Origin: a virus
Virus record (IMG/VR): IMGVR_UViG_3300009162_000001
Direction: 5' to 3' (one strand)
Length of the DNA: 64,000 nt
Part shown: in pieces, positions 19,038 to 56,255 of the stretch
How the letters are laid out: the number at the start of each line of letters is the position of its first letter
Numbering within the stretch: position 1 is the first letter of the stretch
Notes under the pieces: generated by a model
Database searches by the model: none
What the model saw: only the letters and a program-made list of their open reading frames with translations
What the model was told of the DNA's origin: nothing
Made by a program: the position numbers and the translations under genes

Positions 19038-19067
19038 ACGTCACTCCCATCACTTCGGTCTTTTTCG

Positions 19068-19200: not shown

Positions 19201-19566
19201 TCACGCCGTGGTCGGCGCGACCTCCGCGTAACCTGGCACGTAAAGGCGCATGACCATGCTGTCGATGCGCGGGTAGATGTAGGCCTTGACGCTGGTCGAT
19301 GAGATGCGCTCGAAGACCTCCACGTCCTCGGTATTCGGGCCGGTCGGCTTGGTGTCGAGCACTATCACCGCGTGACCCTTGGTCGGCAGGATGACACCGG
19401 GGTTGTCCATCACCGGCAGGCTCTGCACCTTGATGACCAGCTCTGGGTCGAGTGTGTCCACCTTGACGTAGAAGACGAGCTTATTGTGCCAGTACATCTC
19501 CCAGATCGCCACGGTGCCGAACACGCCCATGTAGACCATACCCGAGCCGCTTGCGTCCTTCGCCAT
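19201..19566 (-). CDS. hypothetical protein
   Basis: Track ORF begins at a GTG inside the GTGATAGGAGAGATC leader. ATG at 19566 taken as the start. Confidence 0.6.
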   Translation of the reverse strand: MAKDASGSGMVYMGVFGTVAIWEMYWHNKLVFYVKVDTLDPELVIKVQSLPVMDNPGVILPTKGHAVIVLDTKPTGPNTEDVEVFERISSTSVKAYIYPRIDSMVMRLYVPGYAEVAPTTA

Positions 19567-19598
19567 GATCTCTCCTATCACTCGATCACTGTGGTTCC

Positions 19599-19610
19599 AT
19601 TATATCACAT
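19599..19610 (-). promoter_or_regulatory. conserved extended -10 promoter (ATGTGATATAAT)
   Basis: Plus strand reads attatatcacat. Confidence 0.6.
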
Positions 19611-19763
19611 ATTTTTCCGCTGTGGTAGCCTTCCCGTGTAAATGTAGTCGTAGATCTCCAGCACCAGCGCCTCGACGTCGGTCACCGGGTCAGGCCCCGC
19701 GATGATCGGCGGACCCGGCTGGCGTCGACCTGGGTGATCGGGAGCGAGGATAAGAGGCTTCAT
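19605..19763 (-). CDS. hypothetical protein
   Basis: ATG at 19763 forms a TGATG junction with the upstream stop. Confidence 0.45.
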   Translation of the reverse strand: MKPLILAPDHPGRRQPGPPIIAGPDPVTDVEALVLEIYDYIYTGRLPQRKNM

Positions 19764-19966
19764 CACACACGCTCCTCCCAGGCATCCAGCCACATCATCA
19801 TGGTCTCAAGCGTCATCATGCTGAACTCGTCAGCGTGGATGCGCCGCTGCTCACGACCTGCTGGATCGTACTGGGTGATGACGCGACCACCCTCGTAGAT
19901 GTAGGTGGCGTGCGGCCGGATGAAGCGTGTCTTGCGGTCTCGCACTCGTCGATCGGTCCATGACAT
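19763..19966 (-). CDS. hypothetical protein
   Basis: 67-aa ORF. Confidence 0.5.
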   Translation of the reverse strand: MSWTDRRVRDRKTRFIRPHATYIYEGGRVITQYDPAGREQRRIHADEFSMMTLETMMMWLDAWEERV

Positions 19967-20022
19967 GACTTGTCACTCCCATCACTTAGTTATGCGACGG
20001 AAGTAACTTTACCACACACATA

Positions 20023-20154
20023 TCAGACTGTGGTAAATGCCAGCCCGATTGCGAGGAGACAGACGCCACCCCAACCAACGCTATGGGTCTTGAACGACTC
20101 CCAGCCAGCGGCGATCGCGGCTACGATAAAGAAGATCAACGCGATGTTGTTCAT
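20023..20154 (-). CDS. small membrane protein
   Basis: MNNIALIFFIVAAIAAGWESFKTHSVGWGGVCLLAIGLAFTTV, two hydrophobic segments. Start chosen downstream of the upstream stop at 20184. Confidence 0.4.
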   Translation of the reverse strand: MNNIALIFFIVAAIAAGWESFKTHSVGWGGVCLLAIGLAFTTV

Positions 20155-20183
20155 GCGCTGACAGTTTCCACTAATGTTGATCG

Positions 20184-20594
20184 TTAAACGGCAGCCTTCT
20201 TCGGTGGATGACAGACGGGACACGCGTAGCCGCTCGCAAACGGTGTTGGCGAGTTAAGTACGATCGGTCCATTGTGAACGTGACCACATGTAGGACACTG
20301 CACGGCTGTGTAGACACCATGACTGTACTGCGGTTCAGGTTCACCACGTTCTTCCATCAGCTGCCGCACATAGACGATGGCATCCAGCAGCTCGTCATAC
20401 AGGTCCTGAAGCGCATCACGACCGTTGTTGACCTGCAGCAGCGCGCCATACTTTCGTAGACCGAACGCCTTGCGCTCTTGTATGTCCTGGATGACCAGGT
20501 CGTGCATGCTGGGGCCGTCGTTGGGGACCGGAAGTGGCTGTGTGCCGTCGTATTCGTCACTCATGAGCTCAACCTTACCATATGTCACAGACAT
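20184..20594 (-). CDS. MazG-like nucleotide pyrophosphohydrolase (putative)
   Basis: ERKAFGLRKYG...ALQDLYDELLDAIVYVRQL resembles the all-alpha MazG/dNTP-PPase core common in actinophages. C-terminal CxxC..CxxC. Confidence 0.5.
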   Translation of the reverse strand: MSVTYGKVELMSDEYDGTQPLPVPNDGPSMHDLVIQDIQERKAFGLRKYGALLQVNNGRDALQDLYDELLDAIVYVRQLMEERGEPEPQYSHGVYTAVQCPTCGHVHNGPIVLNSPTPFASGYACPVCHPPKKAAV

Positions 20595-20635
20595 GACAAA
20601 ATACTACGTGTAGCGTGTGACATAATGACGTGATA

Positions 20636-20646
20636 TGTGGTAAAAT
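20636..20646 (+). promoter_or_regulatory. extended -10 promoter (TGTGGTAAAAT); a second copy TGTGACATAAT lies at 20616-20626
   Basis: Upstream of the GGATAGGAGTGATCGAA-ATG leader of the 20681 gene. Confidence 0.55.
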
Positions 20647-20680
20647 AGAACTAGAAGCAAAACGGATAGGAGTGATCGAA

Positions 20681-20848
20681 ATGAACGACATACGCGACAA
20701 CCGATGCGAGCTTTGCGGCGAAAAGTTCGTGGTCGACAAGTTCGGTCTCTACGTTGATGAGGTCGGAGAGTTCTGGAACGAGGAGACCGAGGACAGTGTG
20801 CTCGCGCACGCGCAGTGTGGTTACGACGCCGAGCTCGAGATCGCCTAA
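20681..20848 (+). CDS. small Cys-containing protein
   Basis: MNDIRDNRCELCGEKF... A lone plus-strand gene in a minus-strand block, with its own promoter and leader. Confidence 0.55.
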   Translation: MNDIRDNRCELCGEKFVVDKFGLYVDEVGEFWNEETEDSVLAHAQCGYDAELEIA

Positions 20849-20862
20849 ATCAAAACTTCCAA

Positions 20863-20890
20863 GATGGCCCGGCCAGATGGCTGGGCCATC
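20863..20890. terminator. bidirectional intrinsic terminator
   Basis: 12-bp stem GATGGCCCGGCC/GGCTGGGCCATC with 4-nt loop, flanked by A-run and TTTGTGTT, between convergent genes. Confidence 0.7.
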
Positions 20891-20896
20891 TTTGTG

Positions 20897-22432
20897 TTAA
20901 TCAACCATCATGTCAAAGAGCTGGTCCGTCGGCGAGATCTGGTTGATGAGGCTCTCGCCGCCAGCACCTGACCACGCGCCCCATGCCTGCGTCTGTGCCT
21001 CGCGCTTCACCTCGTAGAACGACAAGATGAGCGCCTCAGCACGGTCAGGTGAGAAGCCGAGCCGATCAATGACGTCCTTCTTCGGCTCAATCTTAATCTT
21101 ACCGTACGAGTCCATGATGACATACCGCGGTGTCGTCAGCTCATAGATGACGTCCTCATCAACCTCGCTGAGGTCCCAACCCTCCAGCCGTGACAGCTCA
21201 CGCCCGACCTGCCACCACAGGTAAGCGCGCATGTTGATGAATTTCTTCTCGAAGCCAGACGGCGGTGCGGCTCCGAAGTTGACCGCTACGACCTCAGCCG
21301 CGTGAGTCGTGTCCGGTGACGTGGGGTTGTTCCGCGATGACAACTCCTTCAGTCGACCGGCAAGTCCCCATCCCAGACCGGTGGAGTCCACCTTGACACG
21401 CGTGAGCTTCCACTCGCGAATCTTTTCAGCCAGGATCCCGACACTACGCATCGGATCGTTGTCCAAGAACTCGAACTCACGACCTGCCTTAGTGCCGCAA
21501 CGCTCGCGCAGTACGGTTCGGTCGCCACCGGCACCAACGTCAATACCACCCTCACGTGGCTCACCCTCCGGGTGTTCGAGGTTCTGACAACGTATCGCCA
21601 TGTCATAGGGAATCGTGGAGAACGGGTCACCACCGGATGGGAACTCACCACCACACTTAGACTGGAAGAGGGCCGACTGACTTCCCCACTTTTCACGACG
21701 CTCTTCCACCCAGCGCTTCGAGACGAGGTGCAGCTTCAGCTCGGCCGAGACCTTCTCGTCGGTGTACGCAGGTGTGTGCTGGAACCCGATGTGAATCGTG
21801 TGCCAAGACTCATCCTTCTCACACACGCTCATGAACTCGCCTGGGCCGTCTGGGTTGCCGATCGCCAGCTGGCGACCATACTCGTTCGATGCGAGTGATG
21901 AGGCTTCATCCCATAAGTTCTTAGGGATGCCGTACGCCTCGTCGAGAACGGCTAGCAGGTACTTAGCGTGGAGACCCTGGAAGGCCGCCTCCTGATGGTC
22001 CGGTGGCTTTCTACCTAGGGCGATCAGCTGTCGTCCGATGTACCACTCACGCAGGTTACACTGTCCGACCAGCCCCAGCTTCCGATGGAAGCGGCCGATC
22101 TCGTACCACAGGATCGCGTCGACCTGCTTTGACGTCGGCGCCGTGGTGATGGCACGCGCTTCGCCAGGCGGATGGACATCCAGCCACCAGCACACGATAA
22201 GCGCTGAGATGTATGACTTGCCCGCGGAGTGGCATGACTTCACAGCGGTGTTGGGATTCTCCACCACCGACATCATGATCTCTTTTTGCTTACTCCACAG
22301 CTCGACGCCAGCGCGTTCACTCGCCCACTTCACCGGATCGTTGCGGTAGCGCAACTGAGGTGGGTCGATGACGTCGGCCAGCGCGCTGGTCAGCGAGGGT
22401 AGAGACAGCTGCACCCTACCATCATAACACAA
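20897..22432 (-). CDS. terminase large subunit
   Basis: 511 aa with a Walker-A-like CHSAGKSY and C-terminal nuclease-type acidic motifs. Start ambiguous (TTG 22432 or GTG 22414). Confidence 0.8.
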   Translation of the reverse strand: MCYDGRVQLSLPSLTSALADVIDPPQLRYRNDPVKWASERAGVELWSKQKEIMMSVVENPNTAVKSCHSAGKSYISALIVCWWLDVHPPGEARAITTAPTSKQVDAILWYEIGRFHRKLGLVGQCNLREWYIGRQLIALGRKPPDHQEAAFQGLHAKYLLAVLDEAYGIPKNLWDEASSLASNEYGRQLAIGNPDGPGEFMSVCEKDESWHTIHIGFQHTPAYTDEKVSAELKLHLVSKRWVEERREKWGSQSALFQSKCGGEFPSGGDPFSTIPYDMAIRCQNLEHPEGEPREGGIDVGAGGDRTVLRERCGTKAGREFEFLDNDPMRSVGILAEKIREWKLTRVKVDSTGLGWGLAGRLKELSSRNNPTSPDTTHAAEVVAVNFGAAPPSGFEKKFINMRAYLWWQVGRELSRLEGWDLSEVDEDVIYELTTPRYVIMDSYGKIKIEPKKDVIDRLGFSPDRAEALILSFYEVKREAQTQAWGAWSGAGGESLINQISPTDQLFDMMVD

Positions 22433-22459
22433 TGGTAGGGTGCGGTACTGCTGTGTCGA

Positions 22460-22864
22460 TCAGACGCTTGCAGCCAGCGTCGCCGGGTCGACGACCTCCA
22501 TCTGCGAGCGGAGCACGTTGGTGTAATACTTCCCACCGTCGCCACCCAGCTTGACGATGCGGTAACGCTCGTTGCGATTCTGCGCCATGACGACATACAG
22601 CTCGTCCTTGAAGCGAACGAGCGTGCCGATCACCAGCGGCGGCTCCCAGGTCATCGTCAGCGAACGAACCTCCGCGGCCGCGTTGACTGCGACGTCGTCA
22701 GCTGCTACGAGGAAGTGGCGCGGAGCGCGAAGACCACGTACGCTGCCGGGCACCTCGAGGTCGACGTTCTTGGGGAGGAACTTCTTGATCGTGAAGGTAA
22801 CACCAGCCCACTTACCCGCGACGTCCGCGCGAAGTTTGACCTGATCGCCTACGCTAAAGTCCAT
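22460..22864 (-). CDS. hypothetical protein
   Basis: ATG at 22864 after the GTGATAGGAGAGATC leader. Confidence 0.6.
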   Translation of the reverse strand: MDFSVGDQVKLRADVAGKWAGVTFTIKKFLPKNVDLEVPGSVRGLRAPRHFLVAADDVAVNAAAEVRSLTMTWEPPLVIGTLVRFKDELYVVMAQNRNERYRIVKLGGDGGKYYTNVLRSQMEVVDPATLAASV

Positions 22865-22898
22865 GATCTCTCCTATCACTGTTGTCCCTGTGGTTCAA

Positions 22899-22910
22899 AT
22901 TATATCACAC
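22899..22910 (-). promoter_or_regulatory. conserved extended -10 promoter (GTGTGATATAAT)
   Basis: Plus strand reads attatatcacac. Confidence 0.65.
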
Positions 22911-22911
22911 T

Positions 22912-23334
22912 TTAGTCACGGCATGACTCGATGAAGCCGTCCATGTCAACAAGATTCATCTCGTAACCCTCGGGAACGACGCGGTAGATCTCTTGGAGGA
23001 ATCGCATCACGGGACGGTATGGCGTGCGCAGCCAGACGATGTCGACGCCGTTGTGCATCTCGATAATCAAGATATGATCCTCACGCCAGATCTTGATGTC
23101 ACCGTCGCCAACGCGATGAGTTGCAACTACACCTGACGCGAGAAGATCACGTGCGAACGACCACTCGACGAACGATTCACCGTCGTTGTCTTCATTGACG
23201 CCAATGAAGACGAGGGAGACCGCGAACGGATCGCGTGTGTGGTACATCAGGCGAACGGGTACGTTGATGCCGTGACCACCGTCGTCAGAACGGGCTGTCA
23301 CGTACACGAGACTTTCATATACCTTGTGGTCCAT
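22912..23334 (-). CDS. SsgA/SsgB-like protein (SALP family, actinomycete sporulation-septation)
   Basis: VPVRLMYHTRDPFAVSLVF...VEWSFARDLLASGV...GDGDIKIW...VVPEGYE aligns by eye with the conserved SsgB core (LRYDTADPYAV..VEWVFARDLLAEGL..GDVRVWP..VPPG.E). Confidence 0.75.
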   Translation of the reverse strand: MDHKVYESLVYVTARSDDGGHGINVPVRLMYHTRDPFAVSLVFIGVNEDNDGESFVEWSFARDLLASGVVATHRVGDGDIKIWREDHILIIEMHNGVDIVWLRTPYRPVMRFLQEIYRVVPEGYEMNLVDMDGFIESCRD

Positions 23335-23359
23335 CGATCACTCCTATCACTAGACTACG

Positions 23360-23430
23360 TAGAGTCACGGGGAGTCGAACCCCGGCTACGAGGGTGAAAA
23401 CCTCGAGGTCTGCCGTTAACCTATGACTCC
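23360..23430 (-). tRNA. tRNA-Glu (TTC)
   Basis: Acceptor GGAGTCA/TGACTCT, anticodon loop TT-TTC-AC, T-arm CGGGG-TTCGACT-CCCCG. Confidence 0.85.
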
Positions 23431-23433
23431 GGG

Positions 23434-23495
23434 TGGAGGAGTGATCTCCCCGGGAGTTTCGCCACCCACACCAACTCTCTTAGATCACTCCTCCA
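23434..23495 (-). other. long hairpin (14-bp perfect inverted repeat)
   Basis: TGGAGGAGTGATCT ... AGATCACTCCTCCA separated by 34 nt, between a CDS and tRNA-Glu. Confidence 0.6.
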
Positions 23496-23513
23496 TCGCA
23501 GACTTTATCAGGA

Positions 23514-30301: not shown

Positions 30302-31234
30302 TTACTTGTTCTGGTTCAGCAGCACGTTGCCGTTGGACCCGATGATGATCGTGCAGTTCGGGTTGGCGGAGCATGCCTTGATCGCCTCGAGCTGCCGGTT
30401 CGCCAGCTCCAGCTCCAGCCACGCCGGGTTGTTGTAGAGCGCCTCCTGAGCCTTGGCGGCCTTGAGCTTGCCCTCTGCCTCAGCCACCTGTGCGGCGGCG
30501 TTCTCCAGTGCCTTGACCTTGGCGTTACGTGCCTCCTGGATCCCCGGGTCCGTGTAGTCCACGTCCTTGAGGATCACCTCGACCGGTGTGCAGTTGCCGG
30601 ACTTCCGATCGAAGGTCGGACCGCAGAAGAAGTCCCCACCCAGGAGCCGCTTGAGTTCCGGCTGGAACGCATCCGCGATCTTCTGCTGCACCTCGGCGTT
30701 ACTGACGCCCGACACCAGGATGTCGGCCGAGTACTCACGCACCACGTTGCGCGTGGAGGTGATCAGCGCGGTCACGATGGTGTTGTTCAGCATCGTGTTC
30801 CAGCCAGCCTCGGTGTTGGCCTGGTAACGACGTCCCTGGGTCTCCCACCACTTGACCAGTGGCGAGTCCTTGCCGCCGACACACGAGGTGTTGAGCTTGA
30901 AGTTCGTCTGGGTCCAGACGTTGACCTGAACACCCGACGGCTGGTTCACCTCAGGCTTGGCCGCCACGGTGATCGGGACGTTCGAGTCCCCACCCGTCGC
31001 GGCGATATTCCAGGTACGAAGGTTGTTCGGCAGCCACACGACGGAGTTGTTCCACTCCGGCTTGTCACTGACGCCAGGCTCGATGCAGTGCCCGAACTTG
31101 TACCCGTCTGACTGGCCCTCCATGTAGTAGAGGCCCACCTCGTCAGGCGGTGCGATGACCGAGCAGGCACCAACGCCGAACAGCACGCCGGCTCCGAGTA
31201 GCGCGATCACCGATCGCTTGAGTCGCTGATTCAC
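30302..31234 (-). CDS. lipoprotein, SPFH/band-7-like (putative)
   Basis: Lipobox LFGVGAC. Central region and the C-terminal Ala/Glu-rich coiled coil resemble SPFH-domain proteins. Confidence 0.5.
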   Translation of the reverse strand: MNQRLKRSVIALLGAGVLFGVGACSVIAPPDEVGLYYMEGQSDGYKFGHCIEPGVSDKPEWNNSVVWLPNNLRTWNIAATGGDSNVPITVAAKPEVNQPSGVQVNVWTQTNFKLNTSCVGGKDSPLVKWWETQGRRYQANTEAGWNTMLNNTIVTALITSTRNVVREYSADILVSGVSNAEVQQKIADAFQPELKRLLGGDFFCGPTFDRKSGNCTPVEVILKDVDYTDPGIQEARNAKVKALENAAAQVAEAEGKLKAAKAQEALYNNPAWLELELANRQLEAIKACSANPNCTIIIGSNGNVLLNQNK

Positions 31235-34784: not shown

Positions 34785-35240
34785 CTATGCCTGTGTCTCA
34801 CTCTCGCGCTCTCGTACCTTCTCGATGTGACCAATGATCGCCGCCTCGAGGTCCTGCAGCGTTGTGGTGCCACCGTCGACCTCAACCACGTCGTCATTGA
34901 CCGTCTCGAGACGCATGATCTCGGAGTTCTCAGCATCGAGAGGACAATCTTCGTCACCACAGTAGATGATGATCGGTTCATCAGATCCGTACTGTGATAT
35001 GAAAAGTGGCCACGTCCGCGCGGTCATCACCAGCCGCTGCTCCTCGGGCGCCAGCTCACTAATGACGTCCTTGACCAGCTGTGAAAAGTCGACGTCCATC
35101 GCCTGTGCCATTCGCTTGATGACGCGCAACATGCCGGCGGCGACTGACAGATGGGTGTTGGCGAACGTCTCGTTCACGTTCTCATGAACCGTAACGTCCG
35201 CGTTCGACGTCTGGACCGTCATACTGATGTGCATGATCAC
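34785..35240 (-). CDS. hypothetical protein
   Basis: 151-aa ORF, 4-nt overlap with thyX. Confidence 0.55.
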   Translation of the reverse strand: MIMHISMTVQTSNADVTVHENVNETFANTHLSVAAGMLRVIKRMAQAMDVDFSQLVKDVISELAPEEQRLVMTARTWPLFISQYGSDEPIIIYCGDEDCPLDAENSEIMRLETVNDDVVEVDGGTTTLQDLEAAIIGHIEKVRERESETQA

Positions 35241-35944
35241 TCCATGTCTTGGAACGTGTTCGGTGCCAGCTCCTTAAGCTGACGCAAGATCTCAGCGGCG
35301 AGTGCGCGGATCTCCCCGTCGGCGAACTGGGTGTTCCGCTTCGCGATGACGTCGCGCCAGGCACGCATGTTGCCCGTCACCAGGATCTTGGTCTCCGTCA
35401 TGTTAGGCAACACGGCGCGTGCCGTCTGGCGCGCCACCTTACGCGCCATGCCCATCGACTCCAGCGCCCGGACGATCGTGGCGTAATGGCTCTGCGCCTC
35501 CGTCATGAGCTGAACCAGGTTTTCCTGCAGCTCCGTCCGCGACTGACCGCCGTGAAGCGCCGGCGGCACGATCAGCTTGGCCTTGGACTCGTCGACGTAC
35601 CGCTGTGAGACTTGCGAGAACGACAGGTGACGGTGCCTGACCAACTCGTGCGTCAGGCTCCGCGAGATCCCGTCGAGGTAGAACGTCGCCGAGGCGTGTT
35701 CCAACACCGAGAAGTGCTGCTGGTTGATGATGTTGTCCAGGTAACGAGCGTTCGTCGCGGTAGCTGGATTGGGTCGCTCCCATGACTGGTAGCACAGGCG
35801 GCCACCAAACTCAGCCAGATGATCGGCGTCGGGACCGTCGTCACCCAGGTCCTCATACGTCTGTTCCGGGTAGTCCACCCAGCCGGCGTCGCGCATGTTT
35901 CCCCAGCCCGTGATGACGGTGTGGGCGATGAGCAGCACTCTCAC
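35237..35944 (-). CDS. thyX: FAD-dependent thymidylate synthase ThyX
   Basis: ThyX signature RHRHLSFSQVSQRY. Confidence 0.88.
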   Translation of the reverse strand: MRVLLIAHTVITGWGNMRDAGWVDYPEQTYEDLGDDGPDADHLAEFGGRLCYQSWERPNPATATNARYLDNIINQQHFSVLEHASATFYLDGISRSLTHELVRHRHLSFSQVSQRYVDESKAKLIVPPALHGGQSRTELQENLVQLMTEAQSHYATIVRALESMGMARKVARQTARAVLPNMTETKILVTGNMRAWRDVIAKRNTQFADGEIRALAAEILRQLKELAPNTFQDME

Positions 35945-37223: not shown

Positions 37224-37506
37224 CAGGCACCTCCTGGGTCATCAGTGGCACGATGTTGAGGAGCGCCTCATTCGGGATCTCCTCGACGTAGAACATGACC
37301 AGCTCGGTCGGCCGGATGTCGATCACCACGCGGCTGACGTTCGGGTACGCCGGAAGAAGTCCCGCGACGTGGAGCGCCTTGAGCATGTCCCTACCGAAGA
37401 CGTATGGCCGTGGCACGTCCTCATGCATGATGTCGGGATCACCACCCATGCCACCACACGTCGCGCACCATCCGTTGATACGATGATGTGGATGCTGGAT
37501 GGTCAC
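37207..37506 (-). CDS. hypothetical protein
   Basis: 99-aa ORF. Confidence 0.5.
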   Translation of the reverse strand: MTIQHPHHRINGWCATCGGMGGDPDIMHEDVPRPYVFGRDMLKALHVAGLLPAYPNVSRVVIDIRPTELVMFYVEEIPNEALLNIVPLMTQEVPDGSVD

Positions 37507-37799
37507 GGTACGATCCCCTCATCCCAGTGGCAGTAGACGTCCTCGTCATCGGGATCGCCCTCATAGGTGCGAACCCAGGCCAGGTACTCCTCCGACTCAC
37601 CCTGCGTCTCGTAGGTGTACGAGCCGTCACGGCTCTCGCGTACGACATCCGGGCAACCCGTCAGGGCGCGAACCATCTGATCGATGATCCACTGCTTGTG
37701 GTGAGCACCGTCGACGTTGGACGCCTGGTCTAGCGCCTTCTTGATGCGATCTTCCAGCGTGGACATGTCCGTCTCGGTAAAGGTGAAGTACGACATCAC
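37503..37799 (-). CDS. hypothetical protein
   Basis: 98-aa ORF. Confidence 0.5.
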   Translation of the reverse strand: MMSYFTFTETDMSTLEDRIKKALDQASNVDGAHHKQWIIDQMVRALTGCPDVVRESRDGSYTYETQGESEEYLAWVRTYEGDPDDEDVYCHWDEGIVP

Positions 37800-38545
37800 G
37801 TTCCCTTCTTACTCGACGAGATCAGCTTGGCGTGGATGATGAGCCGGTGGTAGTTGTCCCACTTGGGATCGCAGGTCGTCAGTGTCAGCAGCTTATCGCC
37901 CGACTTGTAGGCGCCCGGCGGAACCGGAGCGACCTGCTGCCAGGCATCGGGACTGACGATCTGTGGCCCGTCTGTGACCCGGTAAGCGTAGACGTAGTTC
38001 TTGGTCTCAACCTGGATGACGTCACCGACGCGCATCTGATCCAGGTCCCAGAACAGCCCGTGCTCACGATGACCGGCCACCGCGAAGTTGCCCTTCTTGC
38101 CCGGCATCGCGGTTCCGGGGTAGTGACCGGGCGCCGAGGCGATGTCGTCGGCGTTGACGCCCTCGACGACGTACCACGTCAGGCCGAGCCGCTCGATAGA
38201 CATCCGCGCGATCAGGTCGCCCCAGACCACCTCATCCGGTTGCTTGTCGGGCGGCGTAGCACCCTCTGCGCCTCCGGCGATCGCCTCGCCTAGTCCACTA
38301 CCGGGGTCGTTCCAGCGGGCGTCGAGTTCCTGCTGGATGTCCTGGACGCGGTCCTGACCGCCCTCGTACCTTGTGCCCACGTAGATCCACAGTCCCACAC
38401 CGGCGGTAATGCTCAGCACCGCCGCCGTTATGAGCAGGTGGCTGTTGACCCAGCGTCCACCAGATCTCAAACTCGACCCAAGACGTGATAACACGAATCC
38501 TCCCCTGAAGTATGTGATTGATAAACGCGTGAATGGGACCCGCAA
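37796..38545 (-). CDS. sortase (membrane-anchored cysteine transpeptidase)
   Basis: N-terminal TM anchor. Catalytic triad context FAVAGHR, LLTLTTCDP (TLxTC) and RLIIHA. Confidence 0.8.
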   Translation of the reverse strand: MRVPFTRLSITYFRGGFVLSRLGSSLRSGGRWVNSHLLITAAVLSITAGVGLWIYVGTRYEGGQDRVQDIQQELDARWNDPGSGLGEAIAGGAEGATPPDKQPDEVVWGDLIARMSIERLGLTWYVVEGVNADDIASAPGHYPGTAMPGKKGNFAVAGHREHGLFWDLDQMRVGDVIQVETKNYVYAYRVTDGPQIVSPDAWQQVAPVPPGAYKSGDKLLTLTTCDPKWDNYHRLIIHAKLISSSKKGT

Positions 38546-38581
38546 TGTTCACGGGTCCCATTCTAGCGCTTCCTAACGGTT

Positions 38582-39349
38582 CTAGGCCTCGTCGGTCGGT
38601 GCGGCCTGCTCGGCGGCGGTGCGCCGGCGCTTCAGCCACATCGAGCCGAGGATCAGCAGACCGAGCGCGACGGCCGCGATGCCCGAGACCGCGGGCTTCG
38701 TCAGGCTGTCGCCGGTGGTCGGCAGGTCGTTCTGCGGGTTGACCACCGGAGCGGTGGTCGTGGTCGGCGCCGAAGTCGTAGGAACCACACTCGGCGACGG
38801 AGACGCGCTGGGGCTCGGAGATGCCGTCGGGCAAGCCTCGGGCAGCTTCCATGAGTAGAGGTTCTTCAGAAGCGGAACCTCAATGCGCCAGTGAGTGCCG
38901 TCCTTCTCACCCTCGAAGACCAGATAGACCTGCACGTCCTGAACACCCGGAGGACCAAGGGTCACAACGACCGGCTTGTGGTCCGGACCGCCGATCACCG
39001 TGTAGTCCTTGCCGAGGATCTCGAACGTCAGCCGCGTCCACTTGTTGTCCGACACCGCCCAGTTGATCGCTGTGATGACGGTGGTGCCATCGCACTTGTC
39101 CACGACGGTGTAGTCGAGGCACTGAAGAACGTGATCCAGCACATCCCCAGAGATCTTCTCCTCGGCGACACCCTTGGAGACCGTCGACATGGACTCGATC
39201 TGGTCATCCGGGAACTCGCACTGGCGAGTAACCGAAGTGGCGATGCTCGAAGCGGGGGTGGCCGCCTGGGCAGATCCCGCGGCGAACGCCACAGCGCCTA
39301 CCAGAGCGACGGCCGTCGCGCCGAAGAGCGCCAGCAGCTTCCTTCGCAT
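38582..39349 (-). CDS. secreted LPXTG cell-wall-sorting-signal protein (candidate sortase substrate)
   Basis: Sec signal ...AAGSAQA/ATP. C-terminal LPTTG + hydrophobic stretch + KRRR. Pro/Ser/Thr linker. Confidence 0.75.
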   Translation of the reverse strand: MRRKLLALFGATAVALVGAVAFAAGSAQAATPASSIATSVTRQCEFPDDQIESMSTVSKGVAEEKISGDVLDHVLQCLDYTVVDKCDGTTVITAINWAVSDNKWTRLTFEILGKDYTVIGGPDHKPVVVTLGPPGVQDVQVYLVFEGEKDGTHWRIEVPLLKNLYSWKLPEACPTASPSPSASPSPSVVPTTSAPTTTTAPVVNPQNDLPTTGDSLTKPAVSGIAAVALGLLILGSMWLKRRRTAAEQAAPTDEA

Positions 39350-39538
39350 GAAACTTCCTCTCGTTGGCTTCCCCACGCCATTTCTTAGGTCAAGTGCCTC
39401 GGAGGTTCGTGGGGCCGTTCATTAACTCGCGTGACAAAACACTACCACAAGAGGATATGTGATGAACGATTGCATAAGCAAACCCGGCCCTCTCTCGAGG
39501 ACCGGGTCGCATTGTGCCAGCTCAGTGCTGTCGCTGCG

Positions 39539-39940
39539 TTACTCGCGACACACCGAAGAGATGCGGTTCTGCCAGCCGCCCGGGCTCGGGAAGACGCTCA
39601 GGTCGCTGATTCCGGAACCCGCGGCCAGGGAGAACATGTACCCCGAGCCGTTCGCCGAGTCGTAGAACGAGACCTGGAACGGGTTCTCGTTGAGCACAGA
39701 CTCCGCGTTGTTGTTGGCCCCGTTCAGTGGGCTGACGTTGTAGCACGAGCCGAAGGGCCCGTCCATGGGGAACATAGCCGCGGGCGTGCCGGTCCAGTTC
39801 TTGCCGTTCCACAGGCAGGTGTACGTCGTGCCTGTGCAGTTGGACAGTGACCGAGCCGAGGCCGGGTTGGCCGCGACGCCTAGGCCGAGCAGCGTGATGA
39901 CGCCGACGACCAGCACCGTGACGGTGCGCTTCAACCGCAT
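39539..39940 (-). CDS. secreted small Cys-containing beta-rich protein (peptidase-inhibitor I36-like, putative)
   Basis: Signal peptide MRLKRTVTVLVVGVITLLGLGVAANPASA. ATG preceded by GGGAGGAAGT. Ends ...NRISSVCRE. Confidence 0.55.
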   Translation of the reverse strand: MRLKRTVTVLVVGVITLLGLGVAANPASARSLSNCTGTTYTCLWNGKNWTGTPAAMFPMDGPFGSCYNVSPLNGANNNAESVLNENPFQVSFYDSANGSGYMFSLAAGSGISDLSVFPSPGGWQNRISSVCRE

Positions 39941-39971
39941 ACTTCCTCCCAATTGAGTTGGGTTGATGGGA

Positions 39972-40352
39972 CTAGCCGGCTCGTTGGATGGACGAGATCG
40001 TGTTGCGGAACGTCGGCGACATCTGCAGGTACTCCACACCTGGCTCCAAGATGATGGTGGCCGGAGTGATGGAGCAGTTGGAGCTGGTGAACGCGTAGTA
40101 CCTCGTCGACGACTTGTTCCAGAACGACTCGACGTTGTTGTTCCAGACCCCAGACAGGTTCGCGCAGGCGCCGGGACTCAACGACATGATCTGCTTGAGT
40201 CCCTCCTCGTACGGGCTCACCCACATGCACAGGTTTCCCGTTGGGCACGTGTCGTCCGCCGCGGCGGGCGTCGCGACGACGCCCAGGCCGAACATGGCGA
40301 CCGCTGTGACAAGCAGAGCGTGAATGAAACGCTGCTTGAATCGAGACATCAT
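39972..40352 (-). CDS. secreted small Cys-containing protein, paralog-like of 39539-39940
   Basis: Signal peptide. CPTGNLCMW ... NTISSIQ pattern shared with its neighbour. Confidence 0.55.
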   Translation of the reverse strand: MMSRFKQRFIHALLVTAVAMFGLGVVATPAAADDTCPTGNLCMWVSPYEEGLKQIMSLSPGACANLSGVWNNNVESFWNKSSTRYYAFTSSNCSITPATIILEPGVEYLQMSPTFRNTISSIQRAG

Positions 40353-40408
40353 TCTCCTCTGGATTAGGGGGATGTATGCCTAGATTCTATCACATTTAGG
40401 TGATATTG

Positions 40409-41023
40409 CTAACGCCGAGCAAGACGCCTACGACGACTCGGATGTCCGTGAGCTGTTCCACCCGAGGGGACGTCTGGGGTCTCGAAGAGAGGATCTGTGT
40501 AGTGAATGATGCCACCTGGCCCCATGAAGCCGTGCACGTTGTTTGGGTAACCGGACTTACTACTCGTCTCCATTGTGCCATTGGTGATCGACAACCCGTT
40601 AACGGTCGCGTTATTGGCCACACCCGTCAGGTTTCCATGGACCAGCTGGCTGGTAAAGACGTTGGTCTTCATCCCAACGAAGTCATTCGAGCCGATGGCC
40701 ACTCGGTAGGGCAGTCCGGCCGTCACGGCGACCGGTGTGTCGTAGAGGATCGTGTTCCAGGCGTTGGCCGTCACCAGCCCAAAGTCCTTGCTAGCCAGCA
40801 GCGTTCCCGAGCCACCTACGTCTGAGGAGTCCACGCGGTACAACCTCGAGGTGTAGTAGCCCGGAATGCCGCCCGACTGCCCGGTAAGACACCACATACG
40901 AGCGCCTATGACGTTCCCGTTGATCGCGAAGACGATCGTGACACCACCGGAGTGTGGCCCACCCCAAGAGCCACCCGAGTCGACGCTAGGGTTCGCCAGC
41001 CCAAACAGGTTTTCGATCACCAA
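40409..41023 (-). CDS. DUF4082-like protein (putative)
   Basis: 204 aa. The pattern IGARMW...GYYTSRLYRV...AWNTILYDTPVAVTAGLPYRVA resembles DUF4082. Confidence 0.4.
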   Translation of the reverse strand: MVIENLFGLANPSVDSGGSWGGPHSGGVTIVFAINGNVIGARMWCLTGQSGGIPGYYTSRLYRVDSSDVGGSGTLLASKDFGLVTANAWNTILYDTPVAVTAGLPYRVAIGSNDFVGMKTNVFTSQLVHGNLTGVANNATVNGLSITNGTMETSSKSGYPNNVHGFMGPGGIIHYTDPLFETPDVPSGGTAHGHPSRRRRLARR

Positions 41024-41042
41024 ACCATTCTAGACCAAGACG

Positions 41043-41375
41043 CTAACGAACGAACTGCGTGTTGGGCGGTAACTCCACGTCGCTGTCCAGCCGGCGGATG
41101 TCGATCAAGATCTGCTCCTTGGCGGCGTACTCAGCACCAAGCCACCAGACCAGGCCGAAGAGCGTCAGGCAGCGTGGAGAGCAGAAGTACCGCGAGCTGT
41201 CCGTGTTGGCGCACAAGCTGGCCACGGCGGACCTGGCGACCTGGCGCCAGGTCTCGATATTGATGACGAGCCAGTCCTTAGGCGCGTTCGCCGGCAGGAT
41301 GCTGCGCTGATCGGGGTATGGCTCGACGTTGGTGCACGTCGGGCCGTCACAGTGTACCTTCAGTTGAAGTCCCAT
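41043..41375 (-). CDS. hypothetical protein
   Basis: TGATG-coupled start at 41375. Confidence 0.5.
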   Translation of the reverse strand: MGLQLKVHCDGPTCTNVEPYPDQRSILPANAPKDWLVINIETWRQVARSAVASLCANTDSSRYFCSPRCLTLFGLVWWLGAEYAAKEQILIDIRRLDSDVELPPNTQFVR

Positions 41376-41617
41376 CAGGCGTCTTGTCCCCACATTCGGA
41401 GTCGCTCGCCGGTCAGCGGCCACTCATACTCGTCGGTTTCCTTCGTCTTCTTCTTCACTGGCGATTGATCCCAAAGGATGACCTCACCAGGCGGTGCCTT
41501 GGTCGGGCAGTGGCCGGGGCATGCCACGGTGATGACGCGCTTGTCCTTGTGCGGACAACGACACTGCGTCACGAGGGTGCCGTGGCGGCATCGCTTGATG
41601 AAGTGATCGGTGTTCAC
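41375..41617 (-). CDS. hypothetical Cys/His-rich protein
   Basis: 80-aa ORF. Confidence 0.5.
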   Translation of the reverse strand: MNTDHFIKRCRHGTLVTQCRCPHKDKRVITVACPGHCPTKAPPGEVILWDQSPVKKKTKETDEYEWPLTGERLRMWGQDA

Positions 41618-41796
41618 GAGGTCTCTTCCTTCTGACGCTCAACATCCTCACGAGGTTTCTCAGGTTCCCAGTTCTTAGCCCAACCGCACCCTAGACACCA
41701 GACCGAGAGACTGTGAAACTGCAGCCCATACTGCCCGCCTCGCTGCGCACCACAGCGAGGACAGCCTTGACGGATCAGCTCCCAGTCAACGCTCAC
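41614..41796 (-). CDS. zinc-ribbon protein
   Basis: CPRCGA...CLGCGW. Confidence 0.5.
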   Translation of the reverse strand: MSVDWELIRQGCPRCGAQRGGQYGLQFHSLSVWCLGCGWAKNWEPEKPREDVERQKEETS

Positions 41797-42056
41797 GATG
41801 TCCTCCGTGCCTTCCAGACCTGGTACTCGGCCTCCAGCTCGACGGCGCGTTGCTTGGCCTCCTCCTCACGCTTGCGTAGGTTGTCCTTCTCCTTCTTGAT
41901 CGACTCGGTGAAGGCACGGTTGAAGCGGCGGAAGGCGTCCGCCGTCTGCTCGGCGGCCAGCCGGATCTCGAACCAGGCCAGCTTGATCGCCTCGTCAGGC
42001 TTGTTAGGTTCGTTGGGCTTGGTCATGTGTTCTCTTCCTCTCGGCGGCGAAGTCAA
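41793..42056 (-). CDS. hypothetical protein
   Basis: 87-aa ORF. Confidence 0.5.
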   Translation of the reverse strand: MTSPPRGREHMTKPNEPNKPDEAIKLAWFEIRLAAEQTADAFRRFNRAFTESIKKEKDNLRKREEEAKQRAVELEAEYQVWKARRTS

Positions 42057-42068
42057 CGTCGACGTCAG

Positions 42069-42275
42069 TCATCCAAACAACCATGCGACGGCGGCGGCGA
42101 TCCCGAGTATGATCAAGATCATGATACCGAGTGCGAAACCGATCCACAGCGGTGACAGAACCCACCACCATGACCAGCTGATGACACCTACGAGCTTGAG
42201 GACGACGAAGATGATCGTCAGGACGCTGACGAGCCCGAGCCCGCCACCAGAGTTTGATGTTGATGTGTTCGACAT
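42069..42275 (-). CDS. 2-TM membrane protein
   Basis: 68 aa, hydrophobic. Confidence 0.5.
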   Translation of the reverse strand: MSNTSTSNSGGGLGLVSVLTIIFVVLKLVGVISWSWWWVLSPLWIGFALGIMILIILGIAAAVAWLFG

Positions 42276-42279
42276 GTCT

Positions 42280-42549
42280 TCAGTGCCTGTCCAGGTAGGA
42301 GATGAGGGAGATCAGGCCCCAGACCACCAGTCCCAAGATCGCGACGGAGAAGAGTAGGCTGACCAGCCACGCCGCTACGAACCCGGCCAGGCAGCCCTTA
42401 CCGGCGCGCTTCTCACGCTCGGAGAGGAGTGACTCAAAGGGCGGACCCTGAAGGCGCTCGTGGTCAGAGAGGTATGGGCGCGTGGCACGACGGCGTGCTG
42501 CGGCGTCGCGGAGTGACGGGGTGGCCCAGTCGTCATCTTTGTCTCTCAT
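42280..42549 (-). CDS. membrane protein
   Basis: 89 aa with C-terminal TM helices. Confidence 0.5.
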   Translation of the reverse strand: MRDKDDDWATPSLRDAAARRRATRPYLSDHERLQGPPFESLLSEREKRAGKGCLAGFVAAWLVSLLFSVAILGLVVWGLISLISYLDRH

Positions 42550-42561
42550 ATCATTTTCTCC

Positions 42562-42957
42562 TTAGTAGCCGTCTCCGGGTGATCGCACCGTGTTGGTGGT
42601 CGGAGTGGGTGGGACCCGGTGATCTGGGTAGAGGCCGCCGCAGCAGACCCAGCGCCCGTCAACGGTGGCGATGTTGTTTAGGACGTATCCCGTGGTGGGG
42701 CAGACCATGGGTTCGTCGGTGTCGTCGGCGGTGTCGGTGACGTCGGCGTGGCACTCGCACCGGCAGGGCGCGTGACAGATCTTGCACCGACTTGGGTTAC
42801 GTGTGCCTTCGGGTGCGCCGGGGAAGGATGTGGCGCGGCAGGCCTCGTGGCCTGCTGGGTCATCGGGTGTCAAGATCGCATGCCGGCAGTGTGTCGACCA
42901 GTACCAGTGACTGCCGTCTGGGTTGATGACATCCATGAGGTAGCCATGCTTAGGCAT
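42562..42957 (-). CDS. Cys/His-rich protein
   Basis: 131 aa with many Cys/His (CKICHAPCRCECH). Confidence 0.5.
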   Translation of the reverse strand: MPKHGYLMDVINPDGSHWYWSTHCRHAILTPDDPAGHEACRATSFPGAPEGTRNPSRCKICHAPCRCECHADVTDTADDTDEPMVCPTTGYVLNNIATVDGRWVCCGGLYPDHRVPPTPTTNTVRSPGDGY

Positions 42958-43411
42958 GAGGTTCCTCCTGTGGTGCGGCGGGTGTGGTGGGATAGACCTG
43001 CGTGATGGGATCGGTCGTAATGCCGTTGAAGACGGCCAGCGCCGCGGTGGCCTTCAGGCGCGCCAGGTTCCTCTCGGTGCCGGTGGCGGTCTGCCAGTGA
43101 TCGGTGCCGTTCGGACGCTCGGTGTTGTGCAGGAGCCGCGCGACGTCCTGGATGCGAGAGTTGCGGTCGGCATCACTGGTGAGCAAGATCGCGAGTAGGC
43201 CACATGTGCCAACCGCGCCCTCCGCGGAGCCAAGTGATGATCGAGTAAGGTGGAGGACCAGGCGCTCAAAGCCGGTGTCACGGCCATGTCGGGCCACAAG
43301 ATCAGCGTAGAGAAGGCGCAGGGCATCCAGCGCCACAGCTGACTTCTGGATGAGGTCGTCGACGTTCTTGGCGCGGTTGGTCACGCCGGTGAGGAGGTCA
43401 TCAAGATCCAT
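42950..43411 (-). CDS. hypothetical protein
   Basis: 153-aa ORF. Confidence 0.55.
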   Translation of the reverse strand: MDLDDLLTGVTNRAKNVDDLIQKSAVALDALRLLYADLVARHGRDTGFERLVLHLTRSSLGSAEGAVGTCGLLAILLTSDADRNSRIQDVARLLHNTERPNGTDHWQTATGTERNLARLKATAALAVFNGITTDPITQVYPTTPAAPQEEPHA

Positions 43412-43453
43412 GGTGTTTGATCCCTTCGGTCTCTTGGGTCGGGGTCTATCTTA

Positions 43454-43657
43454 TCAAGATTTGGGGTGTGGTGTGTCGTGAGGATTGGTCTCTCGTTCCA
43501 CGACCAGGTGATGCATGCCACACAACTGCAGGTGCATCTCAAACGGGCCATCGTGCAACACAACACGACGACGTGCCTGCTCGTGACAGGGCGCTTCATC
43601 GTGCGGTAGGGAGACCTTGGTGCCCCAGTCGCACCAAATGAGGTTGAGGAACGTCAT
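43454..43657 (-). CDS. hypothetical protein (first gene of leftward block)
   Basis: 67-aa ORF. Confidence 0.5.
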   Translation of the reverse strand: MTFLNLIWCDWGTKVSLPHDEAPCHEQARRRVVLHDGPFEMHLQLCGMHHLVVERETNPHDTPHPKS

Positions 43658-43959
43658 TATTGATCTTGGTCCCTTCGATCGACTCGGAAAAAATTTTAGC
43701 TCGGAGGTGCCAGTGGCACAAAAGTCATATATTTCACATACGGGGACGAAAACGGGATAAGCAACGTAGTTGGCCTAGTCCACCCCAAAACACACACAAA
43801 CATTCACTGCACACCCTTTCGCTCCCAGATCGCCCACTTTGGGCGAAAATGGGAGAGATTCAGGAAAAAGTGAAACACTTTGTTCCAATTTAGGCCAAAT
43901 AGGGCCCTATTGTCCATATTGTACGCTCGCTCACCTGATCTCGCAGGATATAAGAGAAT

Positions 43960-44007
43960 GAGTCTACATTGTTATGTACAATGTAGACACTCGAGAGTCT
44001 ACATTGT
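43960..44007. promoter_or_regulatory. operator-like triple site GTCTACATTGT (inverted pair + direct copy)
   Basis: 43962-43972 and 43978-43988 form an 11-bp-arm palindrome with a 5-bp spacer. A third copy lies at 43997-44007. Confidence 0.6.
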
Positions 44008-44039
44008 ACTCATATAGCTCCAGCGTAGGCGATAGCGTA

Positions 44040-55285: not shown

Positions 55286-55398
55286 GTGGACAGCAGCAGC
55301 TCGTGGCACTGATGTGCATCCTTCTCACGGCACTCGCCATCACGTTTCTCATTATGGGACCGTCCATCATTCAAGCCAATAAGCAGCGAAAGGATTAA
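55282..55398 (+). CDS. 38-aa single-TM micro-protein
   Basis: Not in the track. ATGA-coupled. MSGQQQLVALMCILLTALAITFLIMGPSIIQANKQRKD. Confidence 0.4.
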   Translation: MSGQQQLVALMCILLTALAITFLIMGPSIIQANKQRKD

Positions 55399-56255
55399 TG
55401 ATGGAGTTCACAGGCTACACCGGTCACGAGGTCTACGCCGCCGCGGTGGCAGCCGTCATGGAACTTGGTGCCTTACGTAAGCCACGCGGCATGCTGACCC
55501 GTGACCTCGGCTTCGCCAGCCTGACGGTCCCAGCACCGATCCAGATGCTGCCGCTAGGTACGCGTCCCAACCTGTCGACCGCGATCGCGGCCGTCGAGGC
55601 CGTGCAGCTGATCGGCGGGTTCTCCAATCCCGAGCTGATCGCACGCGTCGCGCCGGCGCTGATGCCGTACGCCGAGCCGGAGGGTCGCTTCCACGGCGCT
55701 TATGGCCGACGCATCGGGACGCAGGTCGGCAGCGTCATCACCAAGCTGCGCACCGATCCTGACTCGCGCCAAGCCGTGGTGACACTGTGGGATCCGATGC
55801 TGGACAACCAGCCGCACAAGAAGGACTACCCGTGCACCGTCGCTTTGACGTTCGAGGTCCACGGTGGCAAGCTGGCAATGACCACCGTGATGCGCTCCAA
55901 CGACGTCTGGCGTGGGCTGCCCTACGACATGTTCCAGTTCACGCAACTACAGGAGTCTGTGGCGCGTGTGCTTGAGATGCCGTCCGGTCGCTACCGCCAC
56001 GTGGCGCTGAGCCTTCACGCGTATGAGGAGGACTGGCCCGAGTTGGAGAAGGTCGACGCACGTAACGCTAAGACTGAGGAGTACTACCCGACCGGGATCG
56101 GCAACGAGGTGATCTACCCCGGCGACTGGCACCGCACGCAGCATCGCGCCTACGAGACCTCGATCGTCACCATCATGGCGGAGGTCACCAGGTCCGAGCA
56201 GTGGTATCGCACGCGTCTGACACCGAGGGCGGTGGTACCCGATGATGGACCCTGA
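55398..56255 (+). CDS. ThyA-fold pyrimidine C5 methylase/hydroxymethylase (Asp at the Asn177-equivalent position)
   Basis: YPCTVALTFEVHGGKLAMTTVMRSNDVWRGLPYDMFQF aligns with E. coli ThyA [38 protein letters not shown]. The nucleophile Cys is conserved and FN becomes YD. Confidence 0.75.
   Translation: MMEFTGYTGHEVYAAAVAAVMELGALRKPRGMLTRDLGFASLTVPAPIQMLPLGTRPNLSTAIAAVEAVQLIGGFSNPELIARVAPALMPYAEPEGRFHGAYGRRIGTQVGSVITKLRTDPDSRQAVVTLWDPMLDNQPHKKDYPCTVALTFEVHGGKLAMTTVMRSNDVWRGLPYDMFQFTQLQESVARVLEMPSGRYRHVALSLHAYEEDWPELEKVDARNAKTEEYYPTGIGNEVIYPGDWHRTQHRAYETSIVTIMAEVTRSEQWYRTRLTPRAVVPDDGP

Follow-up and report, generated by a model that had tools for sequence, protein, structure and literature searches.

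A putative sortase-substrate cassette for cell wall display in an uncultivated large actinophage

Anchoring of proteins by sortases is textbook biology of Gram-positive bacteria and is regarded as a cellular function. The known routes by which phages alter the surface of the infected cell are lipoproteins, membrane proteins, and glycan modification. Envelope-fixed phage exclusion proteins include the lipoprotein Ltp of Streptococcus thermophilus phage TP-J34 and Llp of coliphage T5. SasX, encoded on a phiSPbeta-like prophage of Staphylococcus aureus, is an LPXTG surface protein that relies on the sortase of the host, and we know of no SasX-type phage that carries a sortase. Plasmid- or island-borne pilus loci bring sortases together with sets of LPXTG proteins. 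The giant “Inocle” extrachromosomal elements of oral Streptococcus also carry a sortase and LPXTG proteins (PMC12340149). Among the cellular enzymes, class E sortases prefer the LAxTG signal and are tied to development (PMC5148588; PMC13251363). Here, we describe a pair of adjacent genes, coding for a class E sortase and an LPTTG protein, in a 64-kb stretch of viral DNA (IMG/VR record IMGVR_UViG_3300009162_000001; “the window” denotes this whole stretch).

The original prediction proposed that this virus carries both a sortase and its cognate substrate, and all five open reading frames (ORFs) that it listed are found on the minus strand at the coordinates given there. The proposal is borne out by the hallmark genes of the window, the class E assignment of the enzyme, and strict adjacency of the two genes in about 20 phage-like loci. 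Judging from these sequences, a conserved, phage-restricted sortase-substrate cassette that extends beyond one genome is real, and we consider it fairly probable that it works as a self-contained, phage-encoded system for display on the cell wall. Full-text searches covering about 8 million papers found no report of a phage-encoded sortase, in keeping with the earlier remark that no characterized phage sortase-substrate pair was known; in one gut virome paper, “sortase B” occurs among the predicted auxiliary genes, but only as a KEGG term.

The sortase and the LPTTG protein

The two genes and the key residues of the enzyme are as follows.

37796-38494, minus strand: class E sortase, 232 aa (Pfam, NCBIfam, structure matches, and predicted fold)
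38120-38122, minus strand: sortase residue Tyr125
38069-38071, minus strand: sortase residue His142
37871-37873, minus strand: sortase residue Cys208
37844-37846, minus strand: sortase residue Arg217
38582-39349, minus strand: LPTTG sortase substrate, 255 aa, with predicted signal peptide and C-terminal sorting signal

By sequence and by predicted fold, the window enzyme belongs to the class E sortases, and its catalytic residues are intact. The Pfam Sortase model (PF04203), which had been named as the first check, covers it almost entirely (profile positions 1 to 124 of 125; E = 1.4e-29; 102.8 bits against a cut-off of 26.6). The curated NCBIfam model for class E (NF033747) is passed narrowly, with 164.9 bits against 160, and the models for classes C, D, and F score far below their cut-offs (59.9, 60 to 68, and 22 bits, respectively). 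The closest solved structures by sequence are class E enzymes. His142, Cys208, and Arg217 (residue numbers refer to the 232-aa form), located in the motifs AVAGHR, LTLTTC, and HRLIIHA, align with the catalytic residues of SrtE from T. fusca and S. avermitilis and are invariant in an alignment of 19 sequences. The tyrosine typical of class E is present as Tyr125 in a GHY motif and is nearly invariant in the phage clade, where one member has Phe; its counterpart in SrtE1 is Tyr229, which is located in the beta3/beta4 loop directly after His228 at the end of beta3 (PMC5148588). The AlphaFold2 (AF2) model of the enzyme has a predicted local distance difference test (pLDDT) value of 80, and Foldseek ranks 1 to 14 are all taken by class E enzymes, including T. 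fusca SrtE, C. diphtheriae SrtF, A. oris SrtA, and S. avermitilis SrtE (template modeling [TM] score, 0.84; root mean square deviation, 2.0), with S. coelicolor SrtE1 among the top matches. The hydropathy profile indicates a cytoplasmic N terminus of ~18 residues, a single transmembrane helix (residues 21 to 39), and an extracytoplasmic catalytic domain.

The membrane-anchored sortase with catalytic His, Cys, and Arg therefore stands as originally described, and what has to be revised is its start, which had been placed at 38545. Translation almost certainly begins with the GTG at 38494 (232 aa) and not with the TTG at 38545, because the former is preceded by a ribosome-binding site (GGGGAGGA), the latter falls within the loop region of a strong hairpin, near homologs are 230 to 234 aa long, and an independent gene call on the source contig also gives 232 aa. 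The nearest homologs share 88 to 62% identity with the window enzyme, and a larger set shares 44 to 52%; these are short proteins on metagenomic contigs. In a crude neighbor-joining tree, sortases from phage contexts (197 to 276 aa) form a separate clade, apart from the cellular class E enzymes with their long N termini. The beta6/beta7 region of the window enzyme is two residues shorter than in the cellular enzymes.

The adjacent upstream gene was predicted to code for a secreted protein with a complete sorting signal, and both hydropathy and sequence agree. The ATG start at 39349 is backed by the preceding ribosome-binding site, by homologs that begin with MRRKLL, and by the gene call on the source contig, also 255 aa. 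The export signal (residues 1 to 29) consists of MRRK, a 19-residue hydrophobic core (Kyte-Doolittle [KD] value, 2.34), and SAQA|AT, its RR pair being compatible with either Sec or Tat. At the C terminus, a Pro/Ser/Thr-rich linker leads to LPTTG (residues 209 to 213; nucleotides 38711-38725), followed by a 19-residue hydrophobic helix (residues 221 to 239; KD, 2.11), KRRR (residues 240 to 243), and a 12-residue tail. The general anchor models fall slightly under their cut-offs, as is usual for actinobacterial signals: TIGR01167 gives 14.7 against 15.9 for the window protein, and PF00746 gives 17.6 to 18.6 against 20 for its relatives.

In the AF2 model, which has a pLDDT above 85 for residues ~40 to 175, the ectodomain consists of two helices packed on a seven-strand beta-sandwich and carries four invariant cysteines (residues 44, 77, 86, and 173). 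Foldseek searches of PDB and BFVD returned no significant structural relative, with a generic Ig-like similarity at a TM score of ~0.35 or less; Pfam, NCBIfam, and PHROGs have nothing on the window ectodomain, and weak profile matches are to generic Ig, FN3, and cadherin repeats.

Pilus loci, too, have a sortase gene next to a gene for an LPxTG protein, so the enzyme could conceivably join substrate monomers into a pilus-like polymer, as class C sortases do with pilins. In addition, the main ectodomain type has an invariant lysine, Lys85, within a DKCDG motif. However, other ectodomain types have N or D at this position, the substrate sequence contains no YPKN-type pilin motif, and the protein is a single small domain with no second pilin gene. 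Given also that the enzyme reaches only 59.9 bits with the class C model, whose cut-off is 160, while the class E model is passed, we consider such polymerization highly improbable: the enzyme is of class E, a pilin motif is absent, and Lys85 is not shared by the other ectodomain types.

Linkage in phage genomes and exchange of the ectodomain

The window encodes a portal protein, large terminase, primase, DNA polymerase, helicase, and exonuclease and carries 16 tRNA genes, which makes it virus-like and not a piece of a bacterial chromosome; further genes code for ThyX, a second thymidylate synthase, RNA ligase, and a DUF6205 protein. Its helicase and portal protein show only 29 to 40% identity to those of phages of Arthrobacter, Microbacterium, Gordonia, and Micrococcus and of an “Actinomycetia phage,” and no near DNA match to the window was found among 50,697 deposited phage genomes (INPHARED). 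Positions 37409-44020 are 100% identical to part of a 104,162-bp ENA metagenome contig (ERZ27257673 k141_5414491). From the hallmark genes, the tRNAs, the distant matches to actinobacterial phages, and the identity to a metagenome contig, we conclude that the window is an uncultivated large actinophage. The sequences indicate a host among the actinomycetes and no more than that, with hints coming from SsgA, WhiB, and DUF397 genes in related phage-like loci; a Streptomyces host is an assumption.

The loci related to or compared with the window are labeled L001 to L017, of which L009 is an IMG/VR uncultivated viral genome (UViG) and L010 and L011 are deposited fecal records. Wherever a related locus offers sufficient sequence, as about 20 do, the two genes are adjacent, and the substrate-type gene lies just 5' of a sortase belonging to the same clade. 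Besides the window, the pair is found in L001, L002, L003/L004, L005 (a 56-kb contig), L007/L008, a 36-kb contig from JGI 3300041967, L009, L012 (57 kb), L013 (41 kb), L014 (33 kb), and L015. A scan of IMG/VR with a single protein found nothing, and an alignment-based scan found one locus, L009, a viral contig in which the pair adjoins the portal and terminase genes. Ten more loci came from a profile scan of JGI metagenomes, and the sortase is present in all nine that have downstream sequence. The linked sortases diverge to ~45% identity, and their contigs span 45 to 63% GC and at least two genome architectures; this GC spread implies that the cassette has persisted through much phage divergence. 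The GC content at third codon positions (GC3) of both cassette genes equals that of the neighboring genes, so the cassette is not a recent import.

The pairs are surrounded by genes for replication and nucleotide metabolism (PrimPol/D5_N primase, ThyX, thymidylate synthase, dUTPase, and SNF2 helicase), by other phage-type genes (TROVE, RNA ligase, Phage_VG64, and a phage zinc-binding domain), and by the actinomycete-typical WhiB, DUF397, and SsgA genes. SsgA is a cell division protein of sporulating actinomycetes; the sites noted for these three gene types and for the gene clusters of L003 and L007 described below are in L014 (13377-13847), L012 (11545-12084 and 13157-13607), and L003 and L007 (1-7400).

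In the substrate family, 37 members were examined, and every one of them carries the C-terminal sorting signal, which is LPxTG (LPTTG, LPVTG, or LPLTG) in 36 and LATTG in 1. Together with the adjacency at every readable locus, this puts the pairing beyond chance. A word-indexed search of 5.8 billion clusters retrieved only 33 relatives of the substrate, all metagenomic and none on a contig longer than 57 kb, and an exhaustive profile search with the ectodomain against 1.84 billion representatives retrieved 12 clusters at E < 1e-10, all of them small proteins of the same design. A scan of 185,579 GTDB species genomes with one degenerate pattern found no copy of the family, and tblastn searches of INPHARED found no match to the substrate or to the DUF4082 protein encoded nearby (see below). 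As far as these sequence collections reach, the substrate family is thus shown to be restricted to phage-like metagenome contigs.

Four sortase matches in INPHARED were set aside: they are human fecal contigs marked UNVERIFIED that resemble bacterial pilus loci, with one or two sortases beside large genes for pilin-like LPxTG proteins. Two of these loci, L010 (MT835974.1) and L011 (MT835683.1), are deposited as “UNVERIFIED: Bacteriophage sp.” and have pilin-like LPxTG genes followed by one or two sortases.

These data bear on the view that the sortase is an incidental passenger derived from a host, or that the contigs are not viral, so that there is no phage-specific function. The sequence relationships point clearly to a cellular, actinobacterial class E ancestry of the enzyme, the evidence is all metagenomic, and the collection of isolate phages yields only the unverified fecal contigs mentioned above. 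Nevertheless, we find this view very hard to sustain, given the phage hallmark genes in the window and L009, the retention of the pair across contigs of such different GC content, sortase divergence, and architecture, the invariant catalytic residues, the failure of the cluster searches and of the one-pattern genome scan cited above to find the substrate family in bacterial genomes, and the match in codon composition between the cassette and the phage.

The 36 LPxTG signals are at odds with the preference of cellular class E enzymes, and the LAxTG signal is the sole class E feature that is missing here in the linked substrates. The mismatch noted in the original prediction is thus real; it is also mild, in that SrtE1 cleaves LPETG at about half the rate of LAETG (PMC5148588), which makes LAxTG a preference and not an absolute rule. 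The only LATTG substrate belongs to L015 (7001-8754), where a 79-aa ORF lies between the substrate gene and the sortase. The L015 sortase is more cellular-like, with HRTPAIWW, a C-terminal extension, and a beta6/beta7 insertion. This coincidence may reflect natural covariation between enzyme and signal, a hint drawn from a single sequence pair.

The same facts could be read to mean that the phage sortase mainly processes or missorts LAxTG surface proteins of the host, such as hydrophobic sheath or chaplin-type proteins, which need class E sortases, and thereby alters the hyphal surface or development to the advantage of the phage, with the LPxTG partner as a secondary substrate or competitor. 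This is a bona fide class E enzyme with the GHY tyrosine proposed to favor Ala at P3, SrtE1 accepts both LAETG and LPETG (PMC5148588), class E sortases control morphogenesis in Streptomyces and Actinoplanes (PMC5148588; PMC13251363), and the relatives carry the developmental genes SsgA and WhiB. Still, a dedicated partner gene is linked to the sortase in about 20 of 20 loci, and its sorting signal is more conserved than the ectodomain; because of this unbroken linkage and pattern of conservation, we regard the partner as the selected substrate. Moreover, the host already owns such a sortase, which makes the benefit of a second one with the same specificity questionable. Host proteins as the main target therefore appear unlikely to us, and the partner protein is the preferred substrate in what follows.

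Near relatives of the LPTTG protein keep signal peptides and sorting signals that are almost constant, while their ectodomains are nonhomologous. Between L001 and the window, the DNA for the signal peptide and the sorting signal has ~80 to 85% translated identity, whereas the ectodomains are unrelated: translated similarity covers 39549-39289 (leader and signal peptide) and resumes at 38728-38609 (sorting signal), with nothing between. One alternative ectodomain type is represented by L001/P0152 and P0150, a second by P0137, and a third by P0143, and some members of the family contain an Excalibur Ca-binding insert. At the level of sequence, these comparisons show that ectodomains are exchanged as a cassette on a fixed scaffold for export and anchoring.

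Proposed transcriptional layout and neighboring genes

Folding and alignment revealed the hairpins and the conserved leader among the following elements of the locus.

38498-38507, minus strand: ribosome-binding site of the sortase gene (CAGGGGAGGA), within a stretch conserved in L001 and L002
38523-38571, minus strand: strong stem-loop in the spacer that separates the substrate and sortase genes (15-bp core, 38531-38563), then GUUUAU
39355-39447, minus strand: conserved noncoding leader of the substrate gene (alignment of the window, L001, and L002)
39476-39513, minus strand: terminator-like GC-rich hairpin after the gene for the I36-family protein “a,” then UUGCUUAU

The stem-loop between the two genes has a minimum free energy of -44.3 kcal/mol (z = -4.27), and none of 200 shuffled sequences was as stable. 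A hairpin is located at the same position in L001, L002, L014, and L017, and in the latter two its sequence is unrelated; it is absent in L003, L005, L007, and L013, where the substrate and sortase genes overlap. Such a stem-loop may act like a terminator or attenuator, which would yield much substrate and, by read-through, less enzyme.

The leader contains an extended -10-like element (TGGTAGTGT) at 39439-39447, an inverted repeat formed by CCCCACG (39408-39414) and CGTGGGG (39371-39377), and the ribosome-binding site of the substrate gene (GAGAGGAA) at 39355-39362. The window, L001, and L002 share these blocks without change, but L002 differs in the sequence enclosed by the two arms of the stem; overall, a 189-nucleotide leader is nearly invariant between the window and L001 and partly so in L002. 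This pattern suggests a promoter followed by a stem in the 5' untranslated region. A scan for consensus promoters and terminators gave nothing above the shuffled background and did not flag the -10-like site. The upstream hairpin at 39476-39513 (z = -3.54, with 0 of 200 shuffles as stable) is conserved in L001 and, being terminator-like, would separate the I36 genes from the two genes downstream, so that substrate and sortase probably constitute an autonomous transcription unit.

Three further genes follow upstream.

39539-39940, minus strand: I36-family (SMPI-like) predicted secreted protein “a,” 133 aa (PF03995, 30.8 bits against 21.1)
39972-40352, minus strand: I36-family predicted secreted protein “b,” 126 aa (PF03995, 37.7 bits against 21.1)
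40409-41023, minus strand: DUF4082 protein, 203 to 204 aa (PF13313, 35.1 bits against 28.4)

The first two had been described as paralogous small secreted proteins with cysteines, and this description holds: each has a signal sequence and four Cys residues, and they are distant paralogs (29% identity; E = 2e-9). The third was rightly recognized as DUF4082-like and was listed with a secreted-protein cluster, but it has no signal peptide and no hydrophobic segment and is not secreted. It has homologs in only 3 of 5.8 billion clusters, one of which is its own. A homolog of I36 protein “a” is also present in L001, the closest relative of the window, where a segment comprising “b” and the DUF4082 gene (~39955-41088) is absent. 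Because “b” and DUF4082 form an indel relative to L001, the conserved unit consists of substrate and sortase alone, and the DUF4082 protein is probably not a part of the display cassette.

The neighborhood varies in the other loci as well. Clusters of glycosyltransferase, epimerase, and methyltransferase genes lie upstream of the cassette in L003 and L007, a hint of further surface modification. An M23 peptidase is encoded directly upstream of the substrate gene in L013 (6123-6824), and small Excalibur-domain proteins are encoded near the cassette in L005 (8723-8920) and L003 (13286-13486).

Taken with the ectodomain, such neighbors raise the question of whether the anchored protein is an adhesin or another modifier of surface properties (hyphal aggregation, attachment to particles, or retention of debris) or acts with the I36 inhibitors against extracellular proteases. 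Some family members have the Ca-binding Excalibur insert, secreted I36 proteins, M23 peptidase, and small Excalibur proteins are found nearby in several loci, and the modeled beta-sandwich has an Ig-like fold typical of adhesins. On the other hand, no specific adhesin or binding domain was recognized in the ectodomain, the neighboring secreted genes differ between relatives, and wholesale swapping of ectodomains fits a race between competitors better than housekeeping adhesion, with which it is nonetheless compatible. On balance, we give the adhesin explanation little credence.

Elsewhere in the window, several observations deserve mention. By coordinate arithmetic, positions 1-7010 reach ~7 kb past the end of ENA contig k141_5414491, so the window must derive from another assembly of this phage, one that is either longer or permuted differently. 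The gene at 2549-10432 (minus strand) encodes a 2,627-aa polyvalent protein with an N-terminal head morphogenesis domain of the MuF/SPP1 gp7 type, a NUDIX domain (residues ~373 to 508), and a C-terminal ADP-ribosyltransferase toxin-like domain (residues ~2502 to 2609); from its domains, it looks like an effector delivered with the virion. In the vicinity of the tRNA cluster, the genes for a TROVE/Ro60-like RNA-binding protein (phrog_850) and an RNA ligase lie near each other (23860-25476 and 28968-29675, both minus strand). TROVE is also encoded in L012 and L014, in the latter alongside RNA ligase; an Rfam scan of the window detected only tRNAs and no Y-RNA-like partner for the TROVE protein. 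The tRNA genes occupy 15595-26723 (minus strand), most of them clustered at 15.6 to 17.6 kb; ARAGORN also calls a 67-nucleotide tRNA-Lys at 26555-26621, which Rfam does not confirm. Both ThyX and a protein with a ThyA-like thymidylate synthase domain are encoded (35237-35944, minus strand, and 55398-56255, plus strand), as is a 310-aa protein of the SPFH/Band 7 family (30302-31234, minus strand).

Proposed role and comparison with known systems

Upon infection of an actinomycete, the phage would transcribe the LPTTG gene and, by read-through of the hairpin that follows, the sortase gene. The 255-aa protein would be exported by means of its signal peptide and held in the membrane by the C-terminal helix and the KRRR tail. 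The membrane-anchored class E sortase (Cys208/His142/Arg217) would then cut between Thr and Gly of LPTTG and pass the protein to a peptidoglycan precursor, leaving the small beta-sandwich ectodomain, presumably stabilized by disulfides, covalently attached to the host wall on a Pro/Ser/Thr stalk of ~35 residues. Export, cleavage, and anchoring are modeled here on established sortase biochemistry, and covalent wall anchoring of a viral protein in the infected cell, as predicted from the sequences, is well supported by inference. An enzyme of its own would make the display fast and independent of the state of the host and of its developmentally controlled, LAxTG-preferring housekeeping sortase.

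As to the purpose of the ectodomain, a function in surface specificity is most likely, because it is swapped between near-identical signal peptides and sorting signals. Among specific roles, we favor superinfection exclusion or receptor masking, in which phage receptors on the wall of infected or lysed cells would be covered, a choice that carries limited confidence. Similarly tentative is the full proposal that a clade of actinophages carries an orthogonal sortase/LPxTG system that grafts a rapidly exchangeable viral protein covalently onto the peptidoglycan of the infected cell for superinfection exclusion or receptor masking and would be the first virus-encoded system for ligating a protein to the cell wall.

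Several points weigh against these proposals. Everything beyond the sequence level in the scheme above is inference. With the class E tyrosine proposed to favor LAxTG still in place, the enzyme could also, or mainly, act on host proteins; conversely, the sortase of the host might suffice for anchoring. The ectodomain has no recognizable relative, so its proposed role rests on the pattern of variability and on analogy only, and PADLOC models, which cover defense and exclusion families, matched none of the six cassette proteins. Finally, no integrase was seen among the window ORFs scanned, and if the phage is strictly lytic, exclusion would be confined to a single infection cycle.

If the cassette works as proposed, phages could build proteins of their own covalently into the wall of the host, a novel way for viruses to control the bacterial surface. 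An ectodomain that is swapped while its scaffold stays fixed suggests competition among phages or between phage and host, which could be read directly from metagenomes. The short phage class E sortases with their LPxTG partners are also compact candidates for sortase engineering and for surface display in actinomycetes, and the phage pairs offer natural data on LPxTG versus LAxTG specificity in class E enzymes.

The closest relatives of the enzyme are SrtE1 and SrtE2 of S. coelicolor (PDB 5CUW), SrtE of S. avermitilis (5GO5), and SrtE of T. fusca (9IOK), which share its class, triad, GHY tyrosine, and N-terminal membrane anchor. However, the cytoplasmic N terminus of the phage enzyme has ~18 residues, compared with ~100 to 250 in most cellular class E relatives; SrtE1 requires its N-terminal segment for function (PMC5148588). 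In addition, the phage enzyme is encoded by a virus and always paired with one dedicated substrate, with LPxTG in 36 of 37 cases, whereas cellular substrates, such as the long chaplins, have LAxTG.

Inocle-type elements resemble the cassette in that a mobile element brings a transpeptidase along with surface cargo, presumably changing the surface of the host. Those elements are plasmid-like, reside in Firmicutes, and use class A or C sortases, in contrast to a tailed actinobacterial phage with a class E enzyme and a small cargo with a swappable ectodomain. As with SasX-type prophage proteins, the LPTTG protein is phage borne, and it would likewise be wall anchored and alter the host surface, but here the sortase travels with its substrate. 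Ltp and Llp offer a possible functional parallel, each being an exported, envelope-fixed phage protein with a variable target-binding part, although in the present case exclusion is a proposal. They have no sequence or fold relation to the cassette, and lipid anchoring in those systems contrasts with the covalent link to peptidoglycan that the phage's own enzyme is proposed to make.

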